Below, in pieces: positions 675-18,434 of a DNA stretch of 19,840 nt. Source of the stretch: Candidatus Dojkabacteria bacterium (lineage in GTDB: Bacteria; Patescibacteriota; Dojkabacteria; SC72; WJKH01); the NCBI GenBank assembly GCA_014729235.1, contig WJKH01000007.1, forward strand, positions 1-19,840. Direction: 5' to 3'. The first letter of the stretch is position 1, and every line of letters begins with the position of its first letter. The notes below the pieces were generated by a model. The model worked only from the letters and a program-made list of their open reading frames with translations. It did no database searches and was not told the origin of the DNA. Both the position numbers and the translations under genes were made by a program.

Positions 675-2636
675 ATGAATATGAAGAAACACAGCAAATT
701 AATTTTGGCAGCAATTATGGTAATCTCGGGAAGCCTTGCTGTACTTTTATACATTAAAGTTAATCGCCTAACCGCACAAATAATTGAAACACAGTCGACT
801 AGCGCCGCCAGCCCAAAGATTTATGATAGAAACGGAAAATTGCTATACAAGAAACTTCTTGATGATGAAAAGTATATCTATTACGTCGATGAAAATGAAA
901 TAAATTCGTGGCTTAAAAACAGCTTTATAGTAATTGAAGACCAGAGCTTTTATCGGAATTCAGGAGTAAACTTCAGGAGAACAATTCAGTGTGCACTGCA
1001 GACAATATTTACAAAGAAAAATTGTGGAGGAAGCACGATTACTCAACAGTACGTCAAGCTACGCCTCGGCAATTACAAGCGCAATTTATACTATAAAATA
1101 ATTGAAATTCTTGTCTCATTAAATCTTAATCTCCATATGGAGAAAGCTGACATTCTTGAAAGGTACCTGAACACAGTTTATTTTGGCGGATTAAATTACG
1201 GCGTTGAATCCGCATCAGAATACTATTTTGGGGTAAGCAATACTGAGTTAAGCCTCGCAGAGTCCGCTTTTCTTGCTGCTATACCGAATTCGCCGGTAAA
1301 ATTCGATCCCTATGAGAATTTTGAAGAAACAAAGCGCAGACAGGAAATTATCCTGCATGAGCTCTATCAAGCTCGACTCATAAATGAAGCTCAGCTCGAA
1401 GCTGCTAGAGATGAGACAATTGTTCTTGAGCAAAAAGGCAATCAGATTTTAGCACCACATGTAACGGAGCAAGTTCTAAATCATTCAGATGCTGACATAA
1501 TTACAACAATAGACCTTGAGATCCAAAATCTGATTCAGGCTGAACTTAAGAGTTCCATAGAAAATTTACGGGAAGTTAATATCGACAATGCTGCCGCTGT
1601 AATGATAGACGCAGAATCGGGGGAAATTCTGGCAATGGCGGGCAGCTACGACTACTTTGCTCCTGATATAGGCGGGAAGTTTAATGCTGCGACATCTTTG
1701 CGGCAGCCTGGGTCTACCCTAAAGCCTTTTATATACGCTCTTGGTCTGGAACGGGGTCTAACTGCAGCTACTCTAATTGAAGATAAGGAGCAAATTTTTC
1801 TCATAAATGAAGAGCACTATGTTCCCAGAAATTTTGACCTGAGTGAACATGGTTATGTTACTGTGAGAGAATCATTGGGAAGTTCTCTTAATATCCCCGC
1901 TGTCAAGACTTTGGAATACATTGGTCTGGCAGATTTTTACGAATTTACTAAACAGGTTGGTCTTGAGGAAATACCTGCTCAACAGGCTGATCTCTCGGTA
2001 GCTTTGGGAGGTGCTGGAATTAGTCTTTTGGATTTGACTAATTTATATAGGGTGTTTCCCAATAAAGGTCTTTATCACGGGGATCCAACACTAATTTACA
2101 GTGAAAAAGTCGAGCAGGGAAATGGGACTCAAGTCTTTGGTGAAAACTCAGAAGAAATATCATTTATAATCTCAGATATTTTAAATGATAATGATGCCCG
2201 CAGGCTGACTTTTGGTTCCATGAATAATCTCAAAACTACGTCAATATCGTTCGTAAAGTCAGGAACATCGAATGATTTTAAAGACGCCTGGGCTATAGGT
2301 TACAATGGGGAGTTTGTGCTGGGAGTCTGGGTAGGTAATAGTGATAATCGCTCTATGGACGGGGTTTCCTCCGCCTCAAGTGCAAGCTACATCTGGAATA
2401 ATGCTTATGAAAAGGCCTTCGAATATTATGAATCTAGTTATTGTGACGCTGACAAATGTGACTTTTCAATCAAAAAACCATATAATGTAAGTGAATTTCA
2501 GGTCTGCAGCGGCAATTCCGGCTTGGGAGAACTTTTACAATGTGAAGGCTATCTCTATAAAGAATATTTTTACGAGCCTTTTCTTCCCGGTTCAGATCGA
2601 GCTGTTCACCGGATTTCAGTTGACGGTTCCCCTTAA
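675..2636 (+). CDS. Class A (bifunctional) penicillin-binding protein with a GT51 glycosyltransferase and a transpeptidase; PBP1C-like by genomic context
   Basis: N-terminal TM segment (LILAAIMVISGSLAVLLYI). GT51 motifs are 'IEDQSFYRNSGVN', 'GGSTITQQYVK' and 'KIIEI'. Transpeptidase motifs are SxxK 'GSTLKPFIY', SxN 'SSLNIP' and K(T/S)G 'KSGTSND'. The tail is Cys-containing (C-x4-C ... C-x11-C). ATG at 681 is an alternative start. Confidence 0.9.
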   Translation: MNMKKHSKLILAAIMVISGSLAVLLYIKVNRLTAQIIETQSTSAASPKIYDRNGKLLYKKLLDDEKYIYYVDENEINSWLKNSFIVIEDQSFYRNSGVNFRRTIQCALQTIFTKKNCGGSTITQQYVKLRLGNYKRNLYYKIIEILVSLNLNLHMEKADILERYLNTVYFGGLNYGVESASEYYFGVSNTELSLAESAFLAAIPNSPVKFDPYENFEETKRRQEIILHELYQARLINEAQLEAARDETIVLEQKGNQILAPHVTEQVLNHSDADIITTIDLEIQNLIQAELKSSIENLREVNIDNAAAVMIDAESGEILAMAGSYDYFAPDIGGKFNAATSLRQPGSTLKPFIYALGLERGLTAATLIEDKEQIFLINEEHYVPRNFDLSEHGYVTVRESLGSSLNIPAVKTLEYIGLADFYEFTKQVGLEEIPAQQADLSVALGGAGISLLDLTNLYRVFPNKGLYHGDPTLIYSEKVEQGNGTQVFGENSEEISFIISDILNDNDARRLTFGSMNNLKTTSISFVKSGTSNDFKDAWAIGYNGEFVLGVWVGNSDNRSMDGVSSASSASYIWNNAYEKAFEYYESSYCDADKCDFSIKKPYNVSEFQVCSGNSGLGELLQCEGYLYKEYFYEPFLPGSDRAVHRISVDGSP

Positions 2637-2698
2637 TTTGAATTAAATTGATAGTAAAAGGTATTTAAAATAATCCTGCATGAAAAGGCGACTAGGAC

Positions 2699-2745
2699 TT
2701 ATTGCACTATTGATTTTTGAATTTCGTAACTCACATTAAATTATT
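2699..2745 (+). promoter_or_regulatory. Copy A of a conserved 47-nt upstream element (candidate shared promoter/operator)
   Basis: 41/47 identical to 16283..16329, and the core 2707..2729 is a 23-nt perfect match to 16291..16313. It contains the imperfect inverted repeat TGAATT-TCGT-AACTCA (2718..2733). It ends 9 nt before the ATG at 2755. Confidence 0.55.
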
Positions 2746-2754
2746 AGGTCGATT

Positions 2755-5700
2755 ATGTCCGAGAAAAACAAATCCAAGAATTCCAAACAAAAAATTATCC
2801 AGATAAGGATTGATCTCAAAAAGCTTAGAGCGTTATGGGATAGAATTAAAACATGGGCAAAACAGGTGTTTGAATATTGGTCAGATCATTTTAAGTTTTT
2901 TACTCAAAAGTCTAATTGGAACCGAAAGACTTTGATTAAAAGATTTAAGCTGATTATTTCTGAAGCCGGAGATGCTCTAACTAAAACCTATAACGAGTTC
3001 AAGTTATTCTGGAAGAACCTTTCTTCGATTTTAAAGGGACTTATAGTGGCAGTCTTTATCCTTATCCTATCATTAAGTGCTTTCAGAGCTGCTAAAAAGT
3101 TATACTCAGTAGCAAAATACAGTTTAAGACCGGAGCTTATCGCGGCTTCAATCTACAACAATGAGACAAATGTTGATCCTGAGGAGGTAATATATTTTGA
3201 TTTCTCCAAAAAGATAGGTCAAAACTGGTTTGAGAAAGTGTTTACTGCAGAGAACGAGGGTTCTTACAAAATCATACCAGGCGACAGCGCAAACAGAGTG
3301 GGAGTGATTGCAGAAGGAGGTTGGCTTCCTGATAAAGAATACACATTGAACCTCGATAGTGACTATTTTAAAAAATCCCATATCATAAACTTTACGACTG
3401 TTAGCTCTCCCAAGATTGTTGCAAACAATCTTTCGTCCCACATTTTGCCCGGGCACACATTTTTATTTGCATATAATCAGGAGGTTTTTAATAAATCTGG
3501 TTCTGGAGAATCTGAAACCCAAGTGCCGGAAGATTTCATAAAGTTTGAACCGGCAGTATCCGGTAAGACTGAGGTTTTGTCACCATCAATGATCAGATTT
3601 ACTCCGGATAAGCCGCTAGAGGCTAGAAATTACAAATTAAGTTTGGGATCTCAAGAGCTTATCGGCTCAACCGGCTTGCATCAGACAAATTTTTTTGAAT
3701 CAGACTTTATAGTTACTGCAGAAACAGAGTCATCAAGTTCAGAGCGAAGATCTCACGATGTAGAGTTAATTATTAATGAGACAAGAAATGTCAGGGAAGA
3801 TACAAACGATCCTGTCTATATTTTACTTAATCAAGATATTGATAGAAAGCTTTTCTCTGAAAAATTGTCATTTCGATTCGAAGAAGATACAGAGACGGGG
3901 GCCAAAATTGATCTTCCGGGCATAAAAGAGGTAAAGTACTATTTTATCTCTGCTGAAGAAGCTGATGATAAATTTAAATATTACATATCTCCTGGACATA
4001 AACAGTTCCTCGTAGCTGAGGTGATTCCTGATAGTCCCTGGAGTAAAGCTGAAGCTCAAATCCAACTGGTTATAGCACCGGGAATTTCGTTAATAAATGG
4101 ATCTGGTAAAACTGAAAAAGAAAAGTATAGGAGAATAGACGTTAAAGAAGATATTAAATATGTTCGAACAAATCTTGCAAACGTCGAAGAATATGAAGAT
4201 TGGTATAGAACGGCCAGATTTGCTTTTAACAATGAGCTGATACACAGTGATGAAGAAATTCAGAATTTAGTCAGAGTATATGATAAAAATGGTGTAGTCG
4301 TCCCTTTACAGAAGCTCAGAGTTGTAAACTGGACCGGGGAGATTGTTTTTACAGATATTCTAAGTCCTGGAGAAGAATATACAATTGTGTTTAGCAGAAA
4401 TATAACAGATGTTTTTGGATCAAGATTGGACAAAGATGTCAGCGTAGATTTTACGTATCCAAGAATTCTGAAACCTGACGCAAACGGGAAATTTGTTTCG
4501 ATTTTTGGTACTGATTTTGCTATGGTTGATAACTCTGTTCCGCATCAAATCTATTTACGATCACGGGGATATGAAGAAGTATACGTTGAATTTGCCAGAA
4601 TACACCCAGAAGAGGCTATAGAAATTCTCGAAGCTGACTCTGTAGAAATTGCCGGTCAAAAAGCTGCAACAGCAGGACAAGTTGTAAAATATGACACAAA
4701 ACCGTTCCATGATGTCAAGTTTGAGGAAGGCAGCGGGATAAACGATACTTCACTTGAATTTCAATATGAGATTAAGGATATTCCTGATGGACTTTACATA
4801 GCTCGTGTTCAGAGTATGGACGGTGAGCACCGTGATTATAAGATTATGTCATTTACAACAGCATCAGCATTGCTGAAAGTTTCACGTCCGGAAGATGAGT
4901 TATTTGTTTGGCTTTCAGATTTGCGTGATGGAAAACCGATCTCGGGCAAATCTCTCAAACTGCGTTCGAAGAATTCTGAACTTGGCTCTCTAGAAACTAA
5001 TAAGTCCGGGGTATCAATTTTTCGCGATTTTATAGATAAGTCAGATTATGAAATTAAATCGTACGATGATCTATACGTATTTTCACCGGATGGCTCGATT
5101 TTTACTTCAACTGACTTTGACAACACAATGAATCCACGGGCATTTCTTGATAGGGATGAAGTTGCCACGAATCCAATGTATAATCTTAGTAAGGATGTCT
5201 TTACTTATATCGATAAACCAATATATAGGGTAGGTGATACCTTACACGCTAAATTTTTTTTACGCGATCTAGCTGACAACCAGAACTTGCCGTACATTGG
5301 TGAATTTGAAGTCACAATTGAGAAATATTCCGATGATAAACCTAAGATTTCAAGAATCTATAATACTAATGAGTATGGAACTGCGCATGGAAAATTTAAG
5401 CTGACAGATGAGTTTAAGCCTGGTGAATACAGTATATGCGTTCATGGATATAGACATTGTGAGAGATTTCTTCTTCAAGAGTTCCAGCCGCTTAGGTATA
5501 CATTTAACGTCAATAAAGACTCTAGAAAGACGTATAAGCCAAGTGATACTGTTGAGCTGGGTGTCGATGCAAATTATTATTTTGGGGAGCCTCTGGCAAA
5601 TGCTGAAGTAGAAGTTAATCTGTTTGTAAGAGATGACTACTTTACAGATTTTTATTCGTTGGATGAAGAGGCCTTCCCGGTGGATGATTTTTCAAAGTAT

Positions 5701-8700
5701 TCTCTTCACCTGCGCGACATTTGGGATGATGACTATGAGTATTATGATTCACTAAAGATTGGGACATATTTCGGCAGAACAGATTCAAACGGAAAGCTTT
5801 CTGTCAAATTACCGTTTGATGTACCGGAGCCGTATGCCTCACAAAATCCCAAATTGCTCTCAATAGAGGTCGCAGTGACTGATGAGCTGGGAGAAAAGCA
5901 GTATAGAACCTTATATGGGAAAGTTTTGCCAAAAGGCGGCATGATTGGACTGTTTGACAGTGATCCTGTAGTGGAAGAAGGCCAGACATTTTTTTATGAA
6001 TTTGAAGCTCTTTATATAGATGAGTATCTGAACCCAAAATCAAGTGCTCCGGTAGAATTTAGTCTGTACAGAGTAGAGTATTCCCAAGTAAGATCGCAGC
6101 TAATTAATCGTGATTATTATTGGGAAAATGTATCTAATGAAGTTTTGGAAGATAGAGTTGTTGTAAACACTGATTCGGATGGTAAGGCAGTTGCGAAACT
6201 TACTCCGAAATCAGTAGACGAAAATACCGATTACTATATTGTTGCTAAGTCTCTCTCATATCCAAATGTAGTTAACCGCCGCATGAAGTATGGATATCAT
6301 AAGTACTGGAGTGATCTTTATGATACTTATAATTCGGAGCAGATGCTGGAGATTGATACTGATAAGGGATCATACAAGCTAGGGGATACAGCACAGCTGG
6401 CACCGAAGATTGATTCGGGTAAATATGTAGGACTGCTTACCTATGAGAGAAAGGGTATTGTTGAGTATAAAGTTATTGATTTTAGATCGGATAACTACCG
6501 CAATGATTTGAAGCTTGAGATAAGTGACGATATTAAACCAAATATTTTTGCATCACTTTATGCCTTCACTCCACATGATTCTGGCAGTGAATTTATTGAC
6601 TATAGATTTGGTGTAGTACAGATAAAAGTTGATGAACCCGAACTGCTAAGAGAAATAAATGTGACTTATGATAAAGAGTCATACCTGGCGGGAGAAACGG
6701 TTACTGTAAATATTGACAATCCAGGTGTTGAAGAACAGACTGAGTATTTGGTGGCAGCTGTCGATAAGGCTGTACTGGATTTGTCTCTGGTAGGGCATTA
6801 TCCGAACGTTCTTGAGATGATGAAGGAAGATTTGTGGGAATCATGGAATCTAGGTATTGCATCGTCTTCAAATATTACTGAATATGAAAATAAGCTGATT
6901 AACGAGATAGCCTGGGGGAATAAGGGAGGAGCTGCGGGTGGAGGTGGCGGAGGTTATTACTCACTTGAACAGGAAGATATTCGCAATAAGTTTGAAGATG
7001 TAGCTGTCTGGCTTCCTGAGGTTTCATCTGAGACGGGTGATGCACAAATTAGTTTCAGCACACCGGATAATCTTACTACATGGCAGCTTGTTGTTTTGGG
7101 AATAAGTAAGTCCGGAGCAATTTCAGCCCAGAAAGCTGAGTTTAGAGTTTCAAAAGACGTAAATATCATCTCGCAGATTCCGGATAAGATGTATTTGGAT
7201 GATGAAATTGAAATAAGCGTTAATCCAATCATAGACTCTGAGTTTGTACAAAGGAATTTAAATTCTGGACTTAAAGTTGAAGTTACTGTTGATAGCGGCA
7301 CAATTGAGTGTGGCCAGAATTATGTTAGAGATACTGAGCGTGTTGACCAGGTTTTGGCTGAGGAAATTCAATCGACGCCTTCACAGAGCTGCCTAATTGA
7401 GAGAGAGCATAGTGACTTTCCGCTGCCTGTTATTTATAGACCTTCTGAGGTGGGTAAGACTTCAATTAGAATGACTGTAGGTACTGAGGAGAAGGCATAT
7501 GATTCGCTCGAAAGGGAAATTGAGATTATCCCTCAGTCCAATCAGAATACTATTATTTCCTATGGGGATACGCTGAACGATAATAATATTTCTGTTAAGT
7601 TTCCTGACCGCGCATATGATAAATCTCTTACTGTGAATTTCACAAACGATGTAATAGGTGATTTGGAGTTTAGCCGTGAATTTTTCTATAACTACCAAAA
7701 CTTGTGTAGTGAACAAACTTCTTCTACAATTTTAGGGTTGTTACCAGGTATAGATCAAAATGATGAATATCGGCAGAAGGCACAGCAGATGGTTGATTAT
7801 CTCACCCAGATGCAGAATTTTGACGGCGGCTGGTCTTATTGGGGAGAAGGTTCGAGTCGAGTATATAATTCAGCTTATGTAGTCTATGCTTTATCAAAGG
7901 CTAAAGCTTCCGGCCTTGATGTTCCTGATGCAACTCTAGCAAATGGCATAGATTTTCTGAATGATCAACATGATGATTATACTGTTACACATCTAAACGA
8001 GACTTTTATGAGATACGTGCTATCCGAGAGCGGCAAGTTTGATTTTTCTAGGATTGACAGCCGGTATCGTCGGATTGGTAGAAATTCTTCAACAATTGAG
8101 ACTCATGCTCTATTTCTCGGAATTTATAATAATTATCTAAACAGTGACGAAATTCAACTTGGTCAAAGAGCTTTGGTAAAGGAAAGAATCCGAGAAATTG
8201 AAACCTATTTACTTGATAATCTTATTGTCAGAAACCAGACTGCAAAATGGGGTGAAGCCCAGGAATTTGAAGAATTTTGGGATTTTTATCGAAATGATAC
8301 GAAAGTTACCGCACTGACTTTGGATATCATGCTTGATTCAATGGGGGGAGACGAGTCACTTATTCCGGTCGTAAATTACTTGAAAACGGAATTACAAACG
8401 AAAAAGCTCGGAACCTTGAGTATGTATTATGTTATTGATGCGCTTGAAAATGCAAAGGAAAAGTATGATTTCTCAAGTAAATATGTCAGAGAAGTGGAAA
8501 TTAATGGAGTGACCTACAATAATTTTGAAATTACTGAAAGCGGACGTCAACTGACAATTCCGTTGGATAATGAAGTAAAACAGCTCGGGATTACAGCTGT
8601 GAGCCAGGAAGGAAAACTTGTGTATTTTGATGCTAAAGCAGACTATAAAGTAGCTCTTGCTGATCAGCCCGAGAGCGACAGCGGAGCTGCAATATACGTT

Positions 8701-9111
8701 GAAGTTCTTGATGATGACCAAGTACTTAAAAAAGGAGATCAATATAAAGTCAGAGCTTATGTTGCTTTGACTGACACATCAGAGCCTTATCGACCGACTG
8801 AGATTCGGATCCCAGTTGCTGCCGGATTAACTCCTGTGAATTTTAATTTGGCTCCTACTGCATCAGATTCAATGAAGGATGAGCTATACCAGCTTTCGAG
8901 TGAGTTTGACAATGCAGAGTATCTGAGTAATGAGGTCGTGTTTTACGCTGGAAGTGGCTACGACGGATTGAAGCCCGGGTTTAAACAGTATGAATTTTAT
9001 GTAAACGCTACAAACAGAGGGAGATTTACGGTTCCGGGAGGTAATGTTCAAGAGATGTATTTGCCCGGACGTAGTTCTATTCAGGATAGCAATGTAATAT
9101 ATATTCAGTAA
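2755..9111 (+). CDS. Giant membrane-anchored alpha-2-macroglobulin family protein with a thioester motif (yfhM/ECAM-like)
   Basis: 2118-aa ORF. MG2-like 'YIDKPIYRVGDTLHAKFF..EYGTAHGKFKLTDEFKPGEYSI' and 'FQPLRYTFNV...ANYYFGEPLANAEVEV'. 'LVAAVDKAVLDLS' is A2M_N_2-like. 'FEDVAVWLPEV...STPDNLTTWQLVVLGISKSG' is the A2M domain signature. The thioester-type motif 'NLCSEQTSS' has CSEQ at 7705..7716. The TED-like repeat is 'FDGGWSYWG'. There is a single N-terminal TM (residues ~91-110, nt 3025..3084) and no Cys lipobox. Confidence 0.88.
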   Translation: MSEKNKSKNSKQKIIQIRIDLKKLRALWDRIKTWAKQVFEYWSDHFKFFTQKSNWNRKTLIKRFKLIISEAGDALTKTYNEFKLFWKNLSSILKGLIVAVFILILSLSAFRAAKKLYSVAKYSLRPELIAASIYNNETNVDPEEVIYFDFSKKIGQNWFEKVFTAENEGSYKIIPGDSANRVGVIAEGGWLPDKEYTLNLDSDYFKKSHIINFTTVSSPKIVANNLSSHILPGHTFLFAYNQEVFNKSGSGESETQVPEDFIKFEPAVSGKTEVLSPSMIRFTPDKPLEARNYKLSLGSQELIGSTGLHQTNFFESDFIVTAETESSSSERRSHDVELIINETRNVREDTNDPVYILLNQDIDRKLFSEKLSFRFEEDTETGAKIDLPGIKEVKYYFISAEEADDKFKYYISPGHKQFLVAEVIPDSPWSKAEAQIQLVIAPGISLINGSGKTEKEKYRRIDVKEDIKYVRTNLANVEEYEDWYRTARFAFNNELIHSDEEIQNLVRVYDKNGVVVPLQKLRVVNWTGEIVFTDILSPGEEYTIVFSRNITDVFGSRLDKDVSVDFTYPRILKPDANGKFVSIFGTDFAMVDNSVPHQIYLRSRGYEEVYVEFARIHPEEAIEILEADSVEIAGQKAATAGQVVKYDTKPFHDVKFEEGSGINDTSLEFQYEIKDIPDGLYIARVQSMDGEHRDYKIMSFTTASALLKVSRPEDELFVWLSDLRDGKPISGKSLKLRSKNSELGSLETNKSGVSIFRDFIDKSDYEIKSYDDLYVFSPDGSIFTSTDFDNTMNPRAFLDRDEVATNPMYNLSKDVFTYIDKPIYRVGDTLHAKFFLRDLADNQNLPYIGEFEVTIEKYSDDKPKISRIYNTNEYGTAHGKFKLTDEFKPGEYSICVHGYRHCERFLLQEFQPLRYTFNVNKDSRKTYKPSDTVELGVDANYYFGEPLANAEVEVNLFVRDDYFTDFYSLDEEAFPVDDFSKYSLHLRDIWDDDYEYYDSLKIGTYFGRTDSNGKLSVKLPFDVPEPYASQNPKLLSIEVAVTDELGEKQYRTLYGKVLPKGGMIGLFDSDPVVEEGQTFFYEFEALYIDEYLNPKSSAPVEFSLYRVEYSQVRSQLINRDYYWENVSNEVLEDRVVVNTDSDGKAVAKLTPKSVDENTDYYIVAKSLSYPNVVNRRMKYGYHKYWSDLYDTYNSEQMLEIDTDKGSYKLGDTAQLAPKIDSGKYVGLLTYERKGIVEYKVIDFRSDNYRNDLKLEISDDIKPNIFASLYAFTPHDSGSEFIDYRFGVVQIKVDEPELLREINVTYDKESYLAGETVTVNIDNPGVEEQTEYLVAAVDKAVLDLSLVGHYPNVLEMMKEDLWESWNLGIASSSNITEYENKLINEIAWGNKGGAAGGGGGGYYSLEQEDIRNKFEDVAVWLPEVSSETGDAQISFSTPDNLTTWQLVVLGISKSGAISAQKAEFRVSKDVNIISQIPDKMYLDDEIEISVNPIIDSEFVQRNLNSGLKVEVTVDSGTIECGQNYVRDTERVDQVLAEEIQSTPSQSCLIEREHSDFPLPVIYRPSEVGKTSIRMTVGTEEKAYDSLEREIEIIPQSNQNTIISYGDTLNDNNISVKFPDRAYDKSLTVNFTNDVIGDLEFSREFFYNYQNLCSEQTSSTILGLLPGIDQNDEYRQKAQQMVDYLTQMQNFDGGWSYWGEGSSRVYNSAYVVYALSKAKASGLDVPDATLANGIDFLNDQHDDYTVTHLNETFMRYVLSESGKFDFSRIDSRYRRIGRNSSTIETHALFLGIYNNYLNSDEIQLGQRALVKERIREIETYLLDNLIVRNQTAKWGEAQEFEEFWDFYRNDTKVTALTLDIMLDSMGGDESLIPVVNYLKTELQTKKLGTLSMYYVIDALENAKEKYDFSSKYVREVEINGVTYNNFEITESGRQLTIPLDNEVKQLGITAVSQEGKLVYFDAKADYKVALADQPESDSGAAIYVEVLDDDQVLKKGDQYKVRAYVALTDTSEPYRPTEIRIPVAAGLTPVNFNLAPTASDSMKDELYQLSSEFDNAEYLSNEVVFYAGSGYDGLKPGFKQYEFYVNATNRGRFTVPGGNVQEMYLPGRSSIQDSNVIYIQ

Positions 9112-10427
9112 TGAAATTAAAAAATTCTGCCCAAAATCTGATTTCAAAGCTTTTCAGGGGTGGGGACAAAATTCCGAATCGTTCCCGCCTCCCTGGTAAG
9201 CCTTCAAAAACTCGCCAAGCGTTGGATCGCGCGCCCAAAATAACACTTCCAAAAGGTTTTAAGTCAAAAGAGCCCAGATTTGTTGGTGATGATCCCAATC
9301 CTAAGCTTATAAAAAAGATTCGTAGAAAGTTATCCGGTATCTCAACGAAAAAAATTGTTCCATTGTCTCTACTGTTATTGATCTTGGTATTTTCAGGCTT
9401 AATTCTAAAAAGTCTCGGAGTTTTTACAATTGATGAAGTGGAGATTACGTATGATGGCAGTCCAGACGCTAAGTTTACTGACGTCAAAGAGTATGAAGTC
9501 AGGGGAAGAATGTATGGTCTGAACTACTTTTCTGTAAATCTCGACAAGATTGTGTCGGAACTGGAAGCAACAAAACCATCCATAGACTACGTTATTGCTG
9601 AGAAAATATTTCCGCGAAAAGTTGAAATCAAGATTTTTGAAAGTGATCCACGACTCACATTAAACGTAAATGACTCAGTATGTGCTGTCGTAGATGACTC
9701 AAATCTTGTTCTAAATCATATAAAGTTCGCACATAAAAATGCAGAAGACAGTGATCAAGCAGCAGATAATGATAATAACGGTACCCAAACGGGCCACTCT
9801 CAAGAAGTTGAGGATTATTTGAGAATTGATCAGGAACAGGAAATTTCAGTAGAAGAATCAGAGTCTACTGAAGATGAGCAAGTGTCATTTTTGGAGCTGC
9901 CAGATGACAGTACCAGGATCGAATTAGAACAGGATGATCCGATAGGACAAGAATCAGAACTGGAACAAGTAGGAGATGAAAACGCTTTGCTCGACGAAGA
10001 TAGCGCAATGAGCGCTGAAGCCGAGTCACTCATCATATCTGAAGTAGCAGGATTCTATCCCCCTGAATTTAGTAATTTTGATAGCTGCAAAGATGTGGCA
10101 GATTTTTATGGTACTGAGTATGTGAGACTGATCAATAGCAAGTTGTCTTATGAGATTGGGCAGCAAAGTAACAATTATTTTGACACACAAATTAATAAAA
10201 TTCTTGAGACATTCGAAAAATATAATATCACTATTACTGATTTTTCAGTTGCAAATGAGATTTGCTCAATTGAAGATGATCATGGATCGATTTTTCTCAT
10301 TGCTCTCAACGGAGATGTTGAGTTGCAGTTGCGCAGACTTGAAATAATTCAGCAGCATTTCATCAGTGATTCAAACAGGTATAAAATTGTTGACTTACGC
10401 TATAAAAGACCTGTGTTGAGCAAATAG
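9111..10427 (+). CDS. ftsQ: FtsQ/DivIB-like cell division protein (TM plus POTRA-like domain) with a large acidic insertion
   Basis: It sits immediately upstream of ftsA-ftsZ. It has a basic cytoplasmic N-terminus and a TM 'IVPLSLLLLILVFSGLILKSLGVF', followed by a POTRA-like 'IDEVEITYDG...NYFSVNLDKIVSELEATKPSIDYVIAEKIFPRKVEIKIFESDP'. The ATG overlaps the upstream TAA (TAATG at 9109..9113). Sequence similarity is weak, so the call rests partly on synteny. Confidence 0.65.
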   Translation: MKLKNSAQNLISKLFRGGDKIPNRSRLPGKPSKTRQALDRAPKITLPKGFKSKEPRFVGDDPNPKLIKKIRRKLSGISTKKIVPLSLLLLILVFSGLILKSLGVFTIDEVEITYDGSPDAKFTDVKEYEVRGRMYGLNYFSVNLDKIVSELEATKPSIDYVIAEKIFPRKVEIKIFESDPRLTLNVNDSVCAVVDDSNLVLNHIKFAHKNAEDSDQAADNDNNGTQTGHSQEVEDYLRIDQEQEISVEESESTEDEQVSFLELPDDSTRIELEQDDPIGQESELEQVGDENALLDEDSAMSAEAESLIISEVAGFYPPEFSNFDSCKDVADFYGTEYVRLINSKLSYEIGQQSNNYFDTQINKILETFEKYNITITDFSVANEICSIEDDHGSIFLIALNGDVELQLRRLEIIQQHFISDSNRYKIVDLRYKRPVLSK

Positions 10428-10504
10428 CCGCAGTCAGTTCCGCTTTTATCCGAATAGTAGCTAATTTGCTTGAGATTTATAACCAAATTTGTTATATAAT
10501 AGAG

Positions 10505-10532
10505 TTGACATTTATGATTACTTTCTTATATA
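10505..10532 (+). promoter_or_regulatory. Candidate sigma70-type promoter for ftsA-ftsZ
   Basis: Consensus TTGACA (10505..10510), a 16-nt spacer, then TATATA (10527..10532). It lies in the 152-nt ftsQ-ftsA intergenic region. A weaker alternative is TTGAGA (10470..10475), 19 nt, then TATAAT (10495..10500). Confidence 0.45.
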
Positions 10533-10579
10533 GTGGATTCAGGCATTACCTTAGTTAAATCTTTTTACTTCTCAGTATT

Positions 10580-11896
10580 ATGGCACGACGAATAGTTACA
10601 GCAATTGATGTTGGATCGAGAAAAATTACAACAGTGATTGCTTCAGTTGATGATGGAGAAAAGCGTCCAACAGTTATCGGAGTTTTTACTCATACCAGTA
10701 CCGGAGTGAAAAAAGGGACAATTGTTAATATTGAAGAAGCGACAGATTCTATCTCAGAAAGTGTTACAGCTGCTGAAAAGATGGCAGGCATAACAGTTTC
10801 TGATGTTTATGTAACGATCAATGGGGAGCAAATAACAAGTATCAATAATAAGGGTGTCGTAGCTGTTGCTGCTGGCAATGAGATTACTATTGACGATACT
10901 ATGCGTGCTATTGAAAATGCAAAAACCCTTTCACTTCCACAGAACATCAATCCGATCCATATAATCCCACGTGAATTTGTAGTCGATAATCAGGGCGGCA
11001 TCAAATATCCGATTGGTATGACTGGAATGAGACTTGAGGTTGAAACGCACATAATTACTGCACCTATGTCTTCATGGCAAAATCTTGTTAAGTGTGTTCA
11101 GCAATTAGGTCTTACCGTAAATGATATTGTTTTTACTGGTTGGGCTTCATCACTTGCTGTCTTGACTGATACAGAAAAAGAGCTTGGAGTAGCAATGCTT
11201 GATATCGGCTCCGGAACTACAAGTATTTCGATTTTTCAAGAGGGTTCAATTGCCTATAGCAGTTGTGTTCCTCTGGGCGGGCAGAGTATTACGAGTGATA
11301 TAGCAATCGGATTGCAGGTGGCATTGGAGGATGCTGAACGGATTAAGGTAAATCTTGATAAGATTTTCTCTCCAAAGACACAAGACCCACGCAAGGATAA
11401 GACTCCGGCACTCCTCAGAAAGAAGGAAGAAGTACGTAAGTCTATGAAAGATGATTCTGAAGATATGGTTGATATATCAGCACTTGGGATTCAGAGTAAA
11501 GACAGGATTTCCAAAAAAATGCTGAAACAGATAATTGAAGCCAGGCTTGATGAGATATTTGATATTGTCAAAGAGAATGTTTCGCAAGCCGGTTATGAAG
11601 TCGCTATGCCTGCCGGTATTGTTGTAACCGGAGGGACTTCGCTTTTACAGGATGTTACGAAAGTGGCTGAAGGCAAATTTGGTGTTCCTGTTCGAGCAGG
11701 TTATCCAACAGGACTTTCAGGTATGATAGAGGAGATCTCAGATCCTTCATATTCGGCTGTTCAGGGATTGGTGAAACATGCAATGGATGATGAAATTGAG
11801 TTGGATGCCGGAGTTGGCTCCGGTCAAGGACCTTTAGGCAATGTCGGTGGCGCACTTGGCAAAGCTCTTTCCTGGCTGAGATCGCTGCTTCCTTAA
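10580..11896 (+). CDS. ftsA: Cell division protein FtsA (actin-like ATPase)
   Basis: 'TAIDVGSRKITTVIA', 'MLDIGSGTTSISIF', 'PLGGQSITSDIA' and 'VVTGGTSLLQ' are actin-fold phosphate/adenosine motifs. The C-terminal amphipathic helix is 'LGKALSWLRSLLP'. It lies directly upstream of ftsZ. Confidence 0.93.
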   Translation: MARRIVTAIDVGSRKITTVIASVDDGEKRPTVIGVFTHTSTGVKKGTIVNIEEATDSISESVTAAEKMAGITVSDVYVTINGEQITSINNKGVVAVAAGNEITIDDTMRAIENAKTLSLPQNINPIHIIPREFVVDNQGGIKYPIGMTGMRLEVETHIITAPMSSWQNLVKCVQQLGLTVNDIVFTGWASSLAVLTDTEKELGVAMLDIGSGTTSISIFQEGSIAYSSCVPLGGQSITSDIAIGLQVALEDAERIKVNLDKIFSPKTQDPRKDKTPALLRKKEEVRKSMKDDSEDMVDISALGIQSKDRISKKMLKQIIEARLDEIFDIVKENVSQAGYEVAMPAGIVVTGGTSLLQDVTKVAEGKFGVPVRAGYPTGLSGMIEEISDPSYSAVQGLVKHAMDDEIELDAGVGSGQGPLGNVGGALGKALSWLRSLLP

Positions 11897-11930
11897 TTTG
11901 TAGCATAATATAAGTTTATTTGATCTTAAT

Positions 11931-13109
11931 ATGTTAGTTACACCTACAATAGAACCCATCGCTAAACTCAAGGTAATCGGCCTCGGAGGTGCCGGTGGCA
12001 ATGCCGTTAATACTATGATTTCCGATTATAGTATTGAAGGGGTTGAATTTATGGCCTTCAATTCTGATCAGCAGGCTTTAAAGAATTCACTTGCTCCTAT
12101 TACTTTACAACTTGGCGAAGAGCTCACAAGAGGTCTTGGTGTAGGTGGAGACCATGTTTTAGGTGCTCAGGCTGCTGAAGAAAGTCTCGATGAGATTCAT
12201 GAATATCTCGCCGGTTCTGATATGGTTTTCCTGACTGCCGGAATGGGAGGTGGTACTGGGACAGGTTCAATTCCTGTTGTAGCTGGAGTATCCGGAAATT
12301 TGGGTGCATTGACAGTAGCTGTTGTTACCAAGCCTTTTAATTTTGAGGGAAGAAAGCGTCTGGAAGTTGCAGAAGAAGGAATTGCTGCACTAAAGGATAA
12401 AGTTGACACATTGATTGTTGTTCCTAACCAACGACTTCTGGATATTATTGATACGGATATCTCTTTTCTTGATGCAATGAAGAAAGTTGATAATGTATTG
12501 GCTGAGGGTGTCAAAAGTATAACAAGCCTTGTAACTCAGACAGGCTTTATTAATGTTGATTTTGCTGATGTTAAATCAGTCATGAGCAGTGCAGGTACTT
12601 CACTCATGGGTATTGGGAAAGCTAAAGGTGAAGGTAGAGCCGAAGAGGCAGCACGTATGGCTACTCAGAGTCCTTTGCTGGATATGTCGATAGAAGGTGC
12701 TACCGGGGTTCTATTCAATGTTATCGGTGGCGTTGATATGTCTATGAAGGAGGTTGATCTTTCAGCTGAATTGATTTCTGATGCGGTTGATCCAAATGCA
12801 AACATAATCTTTGGAGCCACAATTGATGAGAGCCTATCCGATGAAATTGTCATTACAATAGTTGCTACGGGGTTTGATGAAACAAAGAGGCCAATGTCGG
12901 CTTCAAATTCCAGCAAATCATCACAAAGCAATGACGATGATGATTCTGATGACAAGAGAAAATCATCTGTTTCTATTGATGATTTTGATCTTGGAGATTC
13001 AAATTCTTCAGCACCTGAAAAGCCAGCACCAACGAAATCTAAAGATGGAGATGGCGATTCCGATAAAAAAGATCTCGAGATCCCGGCCTTTCTGAGGCGC
13101 GGCAAGTAA
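11931..13109 (+). CDS. ftsZ: Cell division GTPase FtsZ
   Basis: 'KVIGLGGAGGNAVN', tubulin signature 'GMGGGTGTGS' and 'KPFNFEGRKR'. A disordered acidic/Ser-rich linker is followed by the conserved C-terminal peptide 'DLEIPAFLRRGK'. Confidence 0.97.
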   Translation: MLVTPTIEPIAKLKVIGLGGAGGNAVNTMISDYSIEGVEFMAFNSDQQALKNSLAPITLQLGEELTRGLGVGGDHVLGAQAAEESLDEIHEYLAGSDMVFLTAGMGGGTGTGSIPVVAGVSGNLGALTVAVVTKPFNFEGRKRLEVAEEGIAALKDKVDTLIVVPNQRLLDIIDTDISFLDAMKKVDNVLAEGVKSITSLVTQTGFINVDFADVKSVMSSAGTSLMGIGKAKGEGRAEEAARMATQSPLLDMSIEGATGVLFNVIGGVDMSMKEVDLSAELISDAVDPNANIIFGATIDESLSDEIVITIVATGFDETKRPMSASNSSKSSQSNDDDDSDDKRKSSVSIDDFDLGDSNSSAPEKPAPTKSKDGDGDSDKKDLEIPAFLRRGK

Positions 13110-13137: not shown

Positions 13138-13401
13138 ATGAGCAGTAATCGTAAGCAAGAAAGCAAGCTGCTTTCAGTATTAAAAGAGAACTGGCTTCTG
13201 CTTTTTGCAATTCTATACATAATTTCTCCGATTGACGTAATTCCGGACTGGATACCTGTGGCTGGGCAAGGTGATGATGCGCTGGTTCTTATTATTGAGT
13301 TAATAAATCAACTTCGAAAATTTAAACAGAAGCGCGCTTCCAAGGTTATTGATGGTGAAATAGAGTCTTCTGAAAGCATCCAACATGATCAAAAAACTTG
13401 A
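13138..13401 (+). CDS. DUF1232 (YkvA-like) small membrane protein
   Basis: 87 aa. 'ISPIDVIPDWIPVAGQGDDALVL' matches the DUF1232 hallmark (P-x-D-x-I-P-D-x-I-P-x-x-G-x-x-DD). AGAGG lies 8 nt upstream of the ATG. The 3' end overlaps the next gene by 17 nt. Confidence 0.7.
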   Translation: MSSNRKQESKLLSVLKENWLLLFAILYIISPIDVIPDWIPVAGQGDDALVLIIELINQLRKFKQKRASKVIDGEIESSESIQHDQKT

Positions 13402-14617
13402 TCTAAAAAGAGTAATCCCTGTTTTTCTGATCTCGATCATTGGCCTTGTGGCTTTGGTTTCAACAGAAATTAGTGATTCAGGGCAAATTGTAATAACGGC
13501 TATTATTTGGAAACAATTATCCTTTATGGTAGCTGGCTTTTTGATTTACAAAATTGTTTCACGGCTCGATTATACTTATCTTAAGCATATTCAGGTATCA
13601 CTCGTATTATATTTGCTTGTGTTGCTGGGGCTAATACTTACTCTGTTCTTTGGTCCTGTGAGACATAATGCCCGAAGATGGCTTGTGCTCGCCGGTATCC
13701 AGATTCAACCCTCAGAATTTGCAAAGCTAACCATCATTATTTTGACGTTGTCGCTGCTGTCACTGAGAGATAAATTCAATCAGTGGCTTTTGGTCTTTGT
13801 TTCGGGTCTATTTGCGTTAATATATGTAATTTTAATATATTTGCAGCCTCACGGCAGTATGGCATTAATAATAATGGCACTATGGGCTGTAAGTGTCTTC
13901 ACCGTTTTGCCAAAACAATTCCAAAACATGCTGGCAGGAGTGATATTCATAATTTCTTTTGTCTCCGGAATTATATTAAATCAAATGTCTATTATTGTCC
14001 TGATAGTCTCGGCAATCTTGTCAGGATTATTTGCGTATTTATCAAAAGTAAATAAATATCTGCTTATTGTCGTACTTGTAATCGGTGCTGTTATGGGATT
14101 ATTATTTAATCGATTTTCCTCAGAAATTTTTGTTTTTCAACACCAGAGAGAACGTATTGAAGCGTATTTAAGCAATTCATCAGAAAATGAGGCCGAATTG
14201 TTCAATGTTAACCAATCACAGATAGCGATAGGGTCCGGAAAGCTTTGGGGCAAGGGATTTGGTTTTGGTACGCAAAGTAAATTACGATTTTTGCCCGAAC
14301 ATCAAACTGACTTTATATTTGCTTCATATGCTGAGGAGTTCGGTCTGGTTGGTGTTGTGTTTCTTATAGGCTGCTATGGAGTTTTAATCTTCAATATTTT
14401 AAACGATGGTTTTGAGGTGGCTGACCACTTTGGAGCAGCTCTTGTAGAGATATTAGGTTTTAAAATCATGCTTGAAGTATTTATCAATATCGGTACTAAC
14501 ACAGGGATTATTCCTGCTACCGGAATTCCACTGCCTTTGTTTAGTGCTGGAGGCAGTATAACGCTTGCAACGTTTATCACTCTTGGAATGATTCAGGCTG
14601 TAATATTAAAAGATTGA
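13385..14617 (+). CDS. ftsW: SEDS-family peptidoglycan glycosyltransferase (FtsW/RodA/SpoVE); called FtsW from context
   Basis: Polytopic membrane protein carrying 'IQPSEFAKL', 'LPEHQTDFIFASYAEEFG' and 'IPATGIPLPLFSAGGS', all SEDS family signatures. It is adjacent to ftsZ. FtsW and RodA cannot be told apart from sequence alone. Confidence 0.88.
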   Translation: MIKKLDLKRVIPVFLISIIGLVALVSTEISDSGQIVITAIIWKQLSFMVAGFLIYKIVSRLDYTYLKHIQVSLVLYLLVLLGLILTLFFGPVRHNARRWLVLAGIQIQPSEFAKLTIIILTLSLLSLRDKFNQWLLVFVSGLFALIYVILIYLQPHGSMALIIMALWAVSVFTVLPKQFQNMLAGVIFIISFVSGIILNQMSIIVLIVSAILSGLFAYLSKVNKYLLIVVLVIGAVMGLLFNRFSSEIFVFQHQRERIEAYLSNSSENEAELFNVNQSQIAIGSGKLWGKGFGFGTQSKLRFLPEHQTDFIFASYAEEFGLVGVVFLIGCYGVLIFNILNDGFEVADHFGAALVEILGFKIMLEVFINIGTNTGIIPATGIPLPLFSAGGSITLATFITLGMIQAVILKD

Positions 14618-15028: not shown

Positions 15029-16243
15029 ATGCAATATTTTTTTATAGCAGGCAGTAATAGAGGACTGTCATTTGCTGAAATACAAACACTTTTTGCCGGG
15101 CAGTATGGCACAGATAAAATTGAGATTGATACTTTTAAGGATGTGCTGCTCATTAAGTTTAAGAGTGCTGCTCCAAGTGATTCCGACATGAAGATCTGGT
15201 TTGATCGGCTTGGAGGGGTAGTAAAGTTTGGCAGAATTGTTGAAGATCAAGATAAGTTTCTGGAAGAAACAGCAGATAAGTTCAACAATGCTGAGACCGG
15301 AAGTATTCGATTTGGTATAAGCTTTCATGGTAAATTGGATCGAGTTGAGGACCCATTTGGTGGAATTAAAAAATTATCCAAAAAAGTTAAAAAGTATTTA
15401 AAAAGTCACGGAGTAAAATCCGGCTATACGCTACCACAAAAAGGCTCAAGCGAGCTTTCCTCTGCGCAGATATTTAACAATTCGCTAACTGAAGATGGGT
15501 TTGAGCTTGTACTGATTTCTCAGCAGAATTCAGACAAACTACTTGCGGGTGTCACTCTTGGCGTCCAGAACATTGAAGATTTTTCATTTCGTGATTTCAA
15601 AAAACCAGCAGTTGATACTGTTATGGGAATGCTGCCTCTTAAACTTGCAAGAATTATGGTTAATTTAGCTGATGTTGAACCCGGTGAGACTATCTGGGAT
15701 CCTTTTTGCGGCTCCGGAACAGTTTTAATGGAAGCTCTCCACCTTGGTTACAATGTCCTTGGCTCTGATTTTAATAATTCTGCTGTTGTAAATTCGAAAA
15801 CCAACATTGAGTGGATGGGGGAGCATTATGCTCTTGATGATAGTAGATATCGAGTTTTTGATTTTGATATTAGTGATCCCGATGGCAAAATTGTCACTGA
15901 ATTGAAACATACTACTATTTCCGCAGTTGTCTGTGAGCCATATATGGGACCTCCTCAAAAAACAGTTATTCCTAACGATGAAGCCGAAGAGCAGGCCCGA
16001 AAATTTGGTTTTTTGATCGAAAACCTGTTTGATCTGCTGGAAAATTTAAGGCAAGAGACTCTAAAAGTGGTTTTGGTGGTTCCTTCTTACAAAACTCGGA
16101 ATGGCTGGGTAAATGTAAGTTTAAATTCTGTAATCAGCTCAAATTGGAATATTGTAAGCTCTGATTACATATGGGACTTGCAATGGAGCAGAAAGAATAG
16201 TATCATCAAGCGAAATATCATGGTTTTAGAGCTTGATAAATAG
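15029..16243 (+). CDS. Putative SAM-dependent RNA methyltransferase (UPF0020/Trm11-like Rossmann domain) with an uncharacterised N-terminal domain of about 200 aa
   Basis: 404-aa ORF. SAM-binding motif I is 'WDPFCGSGTVLMEALHLGYNVLGSDFN'. A motif IV-like 'VVCEPYMGPP' stands in place of the canonical (D/N)PPY. It lies between rplU and rpmA. The substrate cannot be assigned from sequence. Confidence 0.6.
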   Translation: MQYFFIAGSNRGLSFAEIQTLFAGQYGTDKIEIDTFKDVLLIKFKSAAPSDSDMKIWFDRLGGVVKFGRIVEDQDKFLEETADKFNNAETGSIRFGISFHGKLDRVEDPFGGIKKLSKKVKKYLKSHGVKSGYTLPQKGSSELSSAQIFNNSLTEDGFELVLISQQNSDKLLAGVTLGVQNIEDFSFRDFKKPAVDTVMGMLPLKLARIMVNLADVEPGETIWDPFCGSGTVLMEALHLGYNVLGSDFNNSAVVNSKTNIEWMGEHYALDDSRYRVFDFDISDPDGKIVTELKHTTISAVVCEPYMGPPQKTVIPNDEAEEQARKFGFLIENLFDLLENLRQETLKVVLVVPSYKTRNGWVNVSLNSVISSNWNIVSSDYIWDLQWSRKNSIIKRNIMVLELDK

Positions 16244-17536: not shown

Positions 17537-18412
17537 TCAATTATCTTGCAGCTTTTTAACTAGACCGTCCAGGTCCTTATCAGAGTCAAACTTTATCACA
17601 ATTTTACCACCTGAACTCAGCTTTTTGATACTGACATCATAACCCAAATTCTTTGAAAGAGACTCCTCAATACGCTTCTCGGCCTTGGAAAGCTCCTCAA
17701 TCTTACTCTTGCTGCTTTGCTTACTGTAATTAATTTTACGCACCAGAGTCTCTGTTTCGCGAACACTAAGATTGCGCTTTACTGCTATATTAGCAGTGGC
17801 AGTCAGGGAAGACTCATCAGATAGCCCCAGTAAGGCTCTGGCATGCCCCTCCGTAAGCTGATTATTCATCACATACTCTTTCACACTGTCCGGGAGTGCT
17901 AAAAGTCTAAGCTTATTTGTGATCGTTACACGGTTGAGCCCTACTTTTTTGGCAATTTCTGAATGCGTTAACCCGAATTCATCTGCTAATTGCTTGAATG
18001 CCAGGGCTTCTTCAAGGGGATTAAGATCTTGACGCTGGATATTTTCAATCAAAGCCAGCTCGAGCATTTCTTGTGGAGAAATATCTTTTATTACAACCGG
18101 AACAGTGTCCTTTCCTGCAAGCTGAGAAGCTCGAAAGCGTCTCTCGCCGGCAATTAAATAGTACTGATCCTTGTCCTTTGCTTCATTATCTTTTGTAATC
18201 AGCAATGGCTGGATCACGCCGTGTTCACGTATTGAATCAGCAATTTCAATTAATTCGTCCGGATCAATATTCATCCGTGGCTGGTATGGATTAGGCACAA
18301 TTTTATTAATGCTGAAATGTTCCTGATACCCGGTTGAGTCAATTGAACCTGAACTGATCAAAGCTGAAAGGCCTTTCCCTAAACGATTAGCTTGCTGATT
18401 ATCTGATGCCAT
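17537..18412 (-). CDS. parB: Chromosome partitioning protein ParB/Spo0J
   Basis: 'LGKGLSALI', 'GVIQPLLI', 'YYLIAGERRFRAS', 'ENIQRQDLNPLEEA', and the HTH 'THSEIAKKVGLNRVTITNKLRLL'. The start is set at ATG 18410..18412 ('MASDNQQ'), 22 nt downstream of the parA stop. The ORF-track extension to 18526 would overlap parA. Confidence 0.92.
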   Translation of the reverse strand: MASDNQQANRLGKGLSALISSGSIDSTGYQEHFSINKIVPNPYQPRMNIDPDELIEIADSIREHGVIQPLLITKDNEAKDKDQYYLIAGERRFRASQLAGKDTVPVVIKDISPQEMLELALIENIQRQDLNPLEEALAFKQLADEFGLTHSEIAKKVGLNRVTITNKLRLLALPDSVKEYVMNNQLTEGHARALLGLSDESSLTATANIAVKRNLSVRETETLVRKINYSKQSSKSKIEELSKAEKRIEESLSKNLGYDVSIKKLSSGGKIVIKFDSDKDLDGLVKKLQDN

Positions 18413-18434
18413 AGTGATTTCTAGATTTATAAAA

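Follow-up and report, generated by a model that had tools for sequence, protein, structure and literature searches.

What is a pair of genes for a class A penicillin-binding protein (PBP) and a giant alpha-2-macroglobulin (A2M) doing directly in front of ftsQ-ftsA-ftsZ in a bacterium that may have no outer membrane? The association of A2M with PBP1C is known from Gram-negative bacteria, where it is explained as a periplasmic device to trap the protease and repair the wall. Here it appears in Candidatus Dojkabacteria, a member of the Candidate Phyla Radiation (CPR), in positions 1 to 19,840 of contig WJKH01000007.1 ("the window", the whole 19,840-nt stretch that was analysed), a low-GC contig (GC 37–43%). 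The two window proteins are 100% identical to GF357_00425 (PBP) and GF357_00430 (A2M) of a Candidatus Dojkabacteria metagenome-assembled genome, both of which are annotated only as 'hypothetical protein', labels that could be bettered.

The 2118-aa protein is a member of the thioester-type A2M family with the fold of ECAM (YfhM) of E. coli, and its neighbour is a PBP1C-like synthase. We consider it probable that together they are a membrane-anchored surface thioester protease trap with its PBP, in other words the known defence and repair module in a form suited to an envelope that has no outer membrane and, in this lineage, fused to ftsQ transcriptionally and translationally. The pair is the known yfhM-pbpC association, and its occurrence in CPR bacteria is also already known; what is new here is the membrane-anchored, extended, PBP-first form found in one clade, and the coupling to ftsQ.

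The gene pair and its identification

The pair and the parts of the A2M are as follows.

675–2636, + strand: class A PBP, 653 aa (open reading frame (ORF), Pfam)
2637–2754, + strand: PBP–A2M spacer, 118 nt (fold z +1.55, no better than shuffles; no terminator in the scan)
2755–9111, + strand: A2M-family protein, 2118 aa (ORF, Pfam, hhalign, Foldseek)
2755–3084, + strand: basic cytoplasmic tail, aa 1–91, and single transmembrane (TM) helix, aa 92–110 (hydropathy, charge counts)
3085–4248, + strand: ~390 extra extracellular residues, predicted beta-sandwich, Ig/MG-like (ECAM homology begins at ~aa 499; AF2 model)
6346–6975, + strand: bait-region domain (BRD), aa 1198–1343, then predicted disordered segment, aa 1344–1407 (Pfam A2M_BRD E=3e-14)
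7663–8463, + strand: thioester domain (TED), a helical toroid, aa ~1637–1903 (AlphaFold helices at pLDDT 80–96; TM-score to 4ZIU 0.70)
8716–9066, + strand: C-terminal MG domain (bMG10/CTMG), aa 1988–2104 (Pfam bMG10 E=2e-11)

Five Pfam families match the A2M above their gathering scores: A2M_BRD (53.9 bits), MG2 (48.1), bMG10 (44.4), A2M (40.2) and Big_5 (32.3). The protein is so diverged from ECAM that a single-sequence phmmer search of the PDB yields only weak matches to complement C5, and assigning it to the family needed a family profile and an hhalign comparison with E. coli YfhM. The profile of the window's own clade (described below) aligned with YfhM at a probability of 99.6% (E=7e-24, 1424 columns), with window residues ~499–2105 corresponding to ECAM 94–1639. 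For an AlphaFold model of aa 1150–2118 (pLDDT 73.5, pTM 0.62), the top Foldseek matches in the PDB were native ECAM (5A42, E=2e-42) and Sa-A2M (4U48, E=9e-41), at 13–14% identity in the alignments, and the ECAM fragment from MG7 to the C-terminus (4ZIU) matched it with a TM-score of 0.70 and an rmsd of 5.9. The AF2 model of the N-terminal half (aa 115–1160, pLDDT 71) is all-beta, and ECAM is again its top structural match. Since profile and structure methods agree on ECAM, we regard the family assignment as settled.

The PBP carries an N-terminal TM helix (aa 9–27), a GT51 domain and a transpeptidase domain in that order (Pfam Transgly E=8e-48, Transpeptidase E=8e-16). All catalytic motifs are present: EDQSFYRNSG (aa 88–97), GGSTITQQ (118–125), STLKP (347–351), SLN (404–406) and KSGT (528–531). 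Its top NCBIfam model is TIGR02073 PBP_1c (448 bits, followed by PBP_1a_fam with 383 bits), of which it covers positions 6–548 of 728, and it aligns with residues 45–553 of the 770 in E. coli PbpC at 30% identity (E=5e-64), the alignment stopping at 553. We rejected the idea of a truncated pseudogene, as the protein has the same end point as its ortholog at a closely related locus, L001, and has kept the catalytic motifs.

These results bear out what an initial annotation, made from the sequence, had observed. Gene coordinates, the 118-nt spacing, co-orientation and domain content are correct by ORFs and Pfam, and the identification of a GT51/transpeptidase PBP and a thioester-type A2M agrees with Pfam, with PBP_1c as best model and with the fold matches to ECAM.

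Predicted thioester, candidate bait and membrane anchor

Thioester-type bacterial A2Ms are characterised by a CxEQ motif, two tyrosines in the TED, a Met-Tyr pair and an RDDR motif in the CTMG, and a disordered bait, and Met1625/Tyr1626 of Sa-A2M are pocket residues that shield the thioester (PMC4498604). In the window protein, CSEQ at aa 1651–1654 (nt 7705–7716) falls in the CxEQ column of the family alignment, and E-M-Y at aa 2100–2102 (nt 9052–9060) falls in the Met-Tyr column. That both have been kept argues, as far as sequence can, for a live thioester. The two features go together across the family: among 180 members, 131 carry CxEQ and Met-Tyr, 17 carry neither, 29 carry CxEQ only (most of these retain the Tyr) and 3 carry Met-Tyr only (Fisher odds ratio 26, p=4e-9, uncorrected for phylogeny). 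CxEQ is retained in seven of the eight full-length clade members examined, while both features are gone from clade member L007 (with LDQQ and ERF) and from the nearest outgroup proteins, P0003 and P0009. Weak squalene-cyclase-type repeat matches (NCBIfam) lie inside the TED at aa 1665–1737.

The candidate bait, aa 1344–1407 (including GGAAGGGGGG), is Gly-rich, predicted to be disordered and in the expected location. It corresponds to residues 195–258 of the C-terminal-half model, in which the runs 195–200 and 213–258 have pLDDT <50, and the segment keeps the same position throughout the clade.

The N-terminus is where the protein departs most from its relatives. ECAM carries a lipobox (LAGC), and a short signal peptide is usual in the family; the window A2M N-terminus has no lipobox. 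Its tail (aa 1–91) holds 22 K+R versus 8 D+E, and by the positive-inside rule the basic tail and the TM helix after it are predicted to form a signal-anchor with the N-terminus inside and the C-terminus outside. This layout of tail and TM helix is common to all clade members. The N-terminal region matches only nine clusters among 1.84 billion protein representatives, of which the full-length ones all measure 2018–2144 aa. As CPR bacteria are proposed to have no outer membrane (10.1101/2025.01.22.634366), the A2M would have its place of action at the cell surface, in the wall zone, and not in a closed periplasm. The term 'periplasmic', which the initial annotation had carried over from the Proteobacteria, is thus not directly transferable to a TM-anchored protein that is no lipoprotein, in a host of this kind.

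Put together, the A2M may be held in the cytoplasmic membrane by its N-in signal-anchor, with an ectodomain of ~2000 aa that extends into the wall zone; the cell itself is probably without an outer membrane. A foreign protease that cut the candidate bait (aa ~1344–1407) would break the hold of the C-terminal MG domain on the TED and expose the Cys1651–Gln1654 thioester, so that the A2M would cage the protease and bind it covalently, as ECAM and Sa-A2M do. The adjoining PBP would polymerise and cross-link peptidoglycan, which fits the defence-plus-repair proposal for yfhM-pbpC. Thioester formation, protease trapping and the repair role are what we infer from these features.

A giant thioester protein on an epibiotic CPR cell might, rather than being a protease inhibitor, be mainly a host-interaction device, either an adhesin or a covalent surface tag in the manner of complement or TEP proteins. 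Tagging of surfaces is generally known from thioester proteins, C3 and the TEPs among them. The extra Ig-like domains lengthen the reach of the A2M, and it is the fastest-evolving gene of its block (44% identity between the window and L001, against 96% for FtsA). Giant surface proteins of CPR bacteria have been put forward as candidates for host interaction (PMC8080830, PMC13059738). Against such a role, the protein retains the complete trap architecture, with a BRD and predicted disordered bait, and a TED that the Met-Tyr of the CTMG would shield, as well as an obligatory PBP partner, all as in ECAM-type inhibitors, and Pfam finds no adhesin-type domains in it besides Big_5. We therefore think a host-interaction device very unlikely and keep to the protease trap.

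A number of observations weigh against the reading of the pair as a thioester trap with a PBP1C-type repair enzyme. The PBP scores below the trusted cutoff of PBP_1c (448 versus 494.2 bits) and has no Pfam match to BiPBP_C (PF06832); it is PBP1C-like, falling short of PBP1C itself in these two respects. No NCBIfam A2M model matches the window A2M. Pfam lists no TED match at E<=0.01 either, so of the MG2, A2M and thioester-domain signatures named in the initial annotation the first two are Pfam matches, and the claim to a thioester rests on the CSEQ column, the helical domain of the model and the structural matches to ECAM and Sa-A2M. The RDDR of the CTMG, which in ECAM serves contacts with TED and bait, is not conserved (LSNE in the window, FENE in L001; the column reads RDEE/RDEG in L005/L006), and the two TED tyrosines, although present, are shifted two positions (YNYQNLC instead of YPYGC). 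The PBP gene has no identified promoter, and its ATG follows the preceding terminator after only ~15 nt. Lastly, the defence and repair model is only a proposal, even in E. coli.

Pairing across lineages and the position ahead of ftsQ

How general the pairing is was surveyed in two sets of A2M loci. The first consists of 80 loci from GTDB genomes (Peribacteria, Peregrinibacteria, Gracilibacteria, Chloroflexota) and five clade loci (85 in all), the second of 80 metagenome loci, giving 165 together. An adjacent, co-oriented class A PBP is encoded at 88 of the 165 (Patescibacteria, Chloroflexota and unlabelled metagenome contigs). The first set contributes 56 of its 85 loci, 37 with A2M then PBP and 19 with PBP then A2M, and has just four loci that have adequate flanks and no PBP; the metagenome set contributes 32/80. 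A further 23 of the 80 metagenome loci (L088–L167) have a class A PBP gene just past the end of the A2M gene and encoded on the other strand. This convergent arrangement, the third to recur, is also seen at L066 and L075 (labelled Saccharibacteria and Staskawiczbacteria).

The association of yfhM with pbpC, and the idea of defence and repair, have been described (PMC4498604, citing Budd 2004), and we confirmed that in E. coli yfhM comes first and abuts pbpC. The initial annotation was right to recognise the same association in the window; the arrangement differs, the gene order being reversed and the PBP lacking the PBP1C C-terminal domain. Membrane proteins with A2M domains have likewise been noted in CPR bacteria and interpreted as a shield against the proteases of the host (PMC8080830, PMC9793634). 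The linkage of A2M and PBP is equally tight in lineages labelled Patescibacteria and Chloroflexota, which suggests that neither an outer membrane nor a closed periplasm is required for it. Mechanistic models of the A2M–PBP pair must accommodate lineages thought to have no outer membrane. The breadth of the pairing in such lineages, together with the unusual anchor, is mildly surprising.

The window belongs to a clade of its own. PBP relatives at 41–62% identity each stand directly before an A2M of 2020–2144 aa with the tail and TM helix at its N-terminus. Ten loci make up the clade (the window, L001, L004 (partial), L005, L006, L007, L168, L169, L170 and L173), and the order is PBP then A2M in 10/10 loci with the upstream side visible. 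Between the two genes lie 118 nt in the window and 7 nt in L001; in L004–L007 the two touch or overlap. Scans of genome and metagenome collections with the clade A2M alignment gave only distant relatives (<=25% identity), so the clade is absent from those collections, and nothing but distant A2Ms was gained from a third homolog search with this alignment. The contigs of L169 (1–5034) and L006 (20781–22241) carry genes for histidine biosynthesis, acetate kinase and phosphoketolase. This metabolism is richer than usually expected of CPR bacteria, which puts the taxonomic range of the clade in doubt.

The rest of the window is laid out as follows.

229–594, + strand: unknown gene, 121 aa (ORF)
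628–660, + strand: intrinsic terminator hairpin GGGCACGG-loop-CCGTGCCC and T-run, closing the 121-aa gene ~15 nt before the PBP start
9109–9113, + strand: TAATG, A2M stop and ftsQ start overlapping by 1 nt (read directly)
9111–10427, + strand: FtsQ-like protein, 438 aa (POTRA_1 score, position directly before ftsA-ftsZ)
10505–10534, + strand: sigma-70-like promoter TTGACA-18-TATAGT in the ftsQ–ftsA spacer (11/12 consensus)
10580–11896, + strand: FtsA (Pfam, NCBIfam)
11931–13109, + strand: FtsZ (Pfam, NCBIfam)
13138–13401, + strand: DUF1232 gene (Pfam, NCBIfam)
13385–14617, + strand: FtsW/RodA, SEDS (Pfam, NCBIfam)
Downstream of FtsW/RodA, + strand: L21, methyltransferase, L27, SpoU methylase
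Other strand (−): ParB, ParA, signal peptidase I

The PBP–A2M pair is contiguous and co-oriented with ftsQ-ftsA-ftsZ and fills, as the initial annotation had pointed out, a place normally taken by mur/ddl genes (murC-ddlB in E. coli). The TAATG overlap of A2M and ftsQ is also present in L001. Between 675 and 10427 the terminator scan detected no convincing terminator; weak + strand matches at 4066 and 10084 both lie within coding sequence, and the total number of matches is below shuffle expectation. Upstream, the hairpin at 628–660 folds with a dG of -21.9 kcal/mol (z -7.0, equalled by 0/200 shuffles), and L001 has an analogous hairpin in the same position (dG -16.7 kcal/mol, z -6.6). The simple terminator scan did not list the window hairpin, which emerged from folding against shuffles. 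A sub-threshold Rfam match to Termite-leu at 624–687 was rejected, being this same hairpin.

The A2M and the PBP are thus probably co-expressed with ftsQ. The ftsA promoter hexamers are identical in L001, although the spacer otherwise does not align. Because ftsA-ftsZ have this promoter of their own in both genomes, the earlier suggestion that the pair is expressed together with the divisome is supported for ftsQ alone, through TAATG, ftsA-ftsZ being at least partly independent. In the history that we propose, the pair would have moved directly ahead of ftsQ in the common ancestor of the window genome and L001, and PBP-A2M-ftsQ would have become one transcription unit coupled in translation, with ftsA-ftsZ keeping their promoter; the actual co-transcription is inferred from these signals.

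The FtsQ-like protein scores 20.8 bits against POTRA_1 (cutoff 23), and its 48%-identical L001 ortholog scores 35.1 bits. At 438 aa it is far above the size of a typical FtsQ, with a basic N-terminus of ~80 aa, a TM helix and a POTRA domain, and its periplasmic part contains a highly acidic, low-complexity insert of ~110 aa (aa ~205–310).

Identity between the window and L001 is uneven along the locus: 96% for FtsA, 90% for FtsZ, 90% for ParB, 61% for the PBP, 48% for FtsQ and 44% for the A2M. The ftsAZ segment (10504–12989, versus 10673–13172 in L001) has 80% DNA identity, starting exactly at the ftsA promoter, and L21 (64%) and L27 (79%) are well under FtsA and FtsZ. Exceptionally strong constraint could explain the uneven rates, as could recent acquisition of the ftsAZ segment by recombination or transfer.

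The adjacency to ftsQ is narrowly distributed. The order PBP-A2M-ftsQ was found in two of the eight evaluable clade loci, the window and L001. At the other six, the A2M is followed by unrelated neighbours: a ~400-aa unknown protein (L005, L006, L169), an MBL-fold protein (L007), a VKOR-like protein (L170) and a gene on the opposite strand (L173). At the 160 distant A2M loci, neither FtsQ nor FtsA nor FtsZ was encoded within 10 kb (0/160). The initial annotation had named absence of the adjacency from all relatives as the sign of a one-off rearrangement; it does recur, in L001, and the wider survey of gene order did not extend it beyond that locus. Since the adjacency is confined to two close relatives, one rearrangement in a narrow lineage is the simplest reading, and a lineage-specific rearrangement is the more likely account of the ftsQ coupling. 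If functionally meaningful, the coupling would connect, in an epibiont, the defence of the envelope with the division of the cell; the division link is too narrowly distributed for much weight to be placed on it.

The ~400-aa protein, conserved among L005, L006 and L169, has an N-terminal TM helix and no family match, and lies directly after the A2M in all three loci (L005 18497–19675, L006 18514–19749, L169 18538–19755), where the module may include it as a third member. We rejected the idea that it is a cryptic FtsQ (hhalign probability 0.5%, no Pfam match).

A stronger claim would be that the pair is integrated into the divisome and works at the septum, where it would guard and mend peptidoglycan that is newly made and exposed, with the cytoplasmic tail of the A2M perhaps serving in recruitment. 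The TAATG coupling to ftsQ has been kept in two genomes, the cluster has a FtsW/RodA SEDS gene but no class B PBP, and a 91-aa cytoplasmic tail is not found in ECAM. We nevertheless judge integration into the divisome to be unlikely. The two loci with the adjacency are closely related, the distant loci show none of it, and ftsA-ftsZ have their own conserved promoter. The tail also occurs in clade members away from fts genes and is the least conserved part of the A2M (21% identity between the window and L001). In compact CPR genomes, moreover, tight packing of unrelated genes is generally expected. More speculative is an A2M that is a divisome-associated guard, made in step with FtsQ by translational coupling and positioned at the septum by its tail, whose elongated stalk would shield the new, exposed peptidoglycan of an epibiont lacking an outer membrane from the proteases of host or competitors while the PBP1C-like enzyme patched the wall; we hold this to be quite improbable, and in a bolder variant the thioester would serve for covalent attachment to the host cell.

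The PBP could instead be a true component of the division and cell wall (dcw) cluster, the main or sole peptidoglycan polymerase and transpeptidase of a reduced genome, working with FtsW, with the A2M a passenger through its constant linkage. Its glycosyltransferase and transpeptidase motifs are intact, a SEDS protein but no FtsI-type PBP is encoded within the window, and between the window and L001 the PBP has diverged less (61% identity) than the A2M (44%). The closest relatives of the PBP, however, are all A2M-linked, PBP1C-like and in non-division contexts, and the 20 kb visible here leave room for further PBPs elsewhere in the genome. E. coli PBP1C is generally known to be dispensable and not a division enzyme. 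A dcw role for the PBP is therefore also unlikely, and the defence and repair module remains the account that we prefer.

As to the remaining genes, L001 keeps the complete gene order, from a 120-aa gene through ParA, with ftsA, ftsZ, the DUF1232 gene and FtsW/RodA in identical order. Pfam and NCBIfam annotation found no mur, ddl or ftsI (class B PBP) genes in the window, and Rfam and ARAGORN found no RNA genes there. The 121-aa gene (229–594) is 59% identical to L001 177–536, has no significant Pfam or NCBIfam match, and is divided from the PBP gene by the terminator in both genomes. Ahead of it, window nt 1 to ~160 are GC-rich with repeated GAGCGAAGCGA-like units, which differs from the remainder of the window, and L001 begins (1–80) with a tRNA-like T-arm, GGTTCGAATCC; a structured RNA gene, truncated at the contig edge so that only its 3' end is left, is a possible source of these segments. 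The DUF1232 gene, between ftsZ and FtsW/RodA, overlaps the latter by 17 nt, in L001 as well. Further downstream, a 404-aa methyltransferase of the UPF0020/N6_N4 type (15029–16243) is inserted between rplU (L21) and rpmA (L27), an insertion shared with L001 (15504–16721). The L27 ORF as listed has ~16 residues ahead of the start of its Pfam match. The ParB ORF as listed (− strand, 17537–18526, 329 aa) overlaps the end of ParA (18435–19226) by ~90 nt; its true start is probably further downstream, because the L001 ParB has 290 aa.

Comparison with known systems

The window A2M is most like ECAM (YfhM) and Sa-A2M, with which it shares MG domains, a BRD, an A2M/MG domain, a helical TED with CxEQ and a C-terminal MG domain with Met-Tyr. 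The pair as a whole is alike too, a membrane-anchored A2M with a PBP1C-type class A PBP adjacent on the same strand (PMC4498604). It differs in size (2118 aa versus 1653 aa for ECAM), in its anchor (a tail and N-in TM helix instead of a lipobox), in the ~390 extra extracellular residues, and in the altered RDDR and the TED Tyr-x-Tyr offset by two. The order is PBP then A2M, where E. coli has A2M then PBP, and the window PBP is without BiPBP_C. Unlike E. coli, the host belongs to the CPR and would, if the proposal for that group holds, have neither an outer membrane nor a closed periplasm.

Pairs from other Patescibacteria (Peribacteria, Peregrinibacteria, Gracilibacteria) and from Chloroflexota show the same co-oriented, abutting association, and most of their A2Ms keep CxEQ. 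These A2Ms are only 22–25% identical to the window protein and have no counterpart of the clade's N-terminal region; in most of these pairs the A2M gene comes first, BiPBP_C is often retained in the PBP, and no pair is near fts genes.

With the canonical dcw cluster (mraZ...murC-ddlB-ftsQ-ftsA-ftsZ in E. coli) the window has in common a contiguous, co-oriented ftsQ-ftsA-ftsZ and a SEDS gene nearby. Before ftsQ it has PBP-A2M, not murC-ddlB, and FtsW lies downstream of ftsZ.

A last comparison is with the thioester-less A2M of the MagD type in Pseudomonas aeruginosa (PMC3735191), likewise a large membrane-associated homolog. CxEQ has been lost, as in MagD, in the window protein's relatives L007, P0003 and P0009. 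The window A2M itself differs from MagD in keeping both CxEQ and the pocket residues, and in having a PBP for its partner in place of a mag-type operon.

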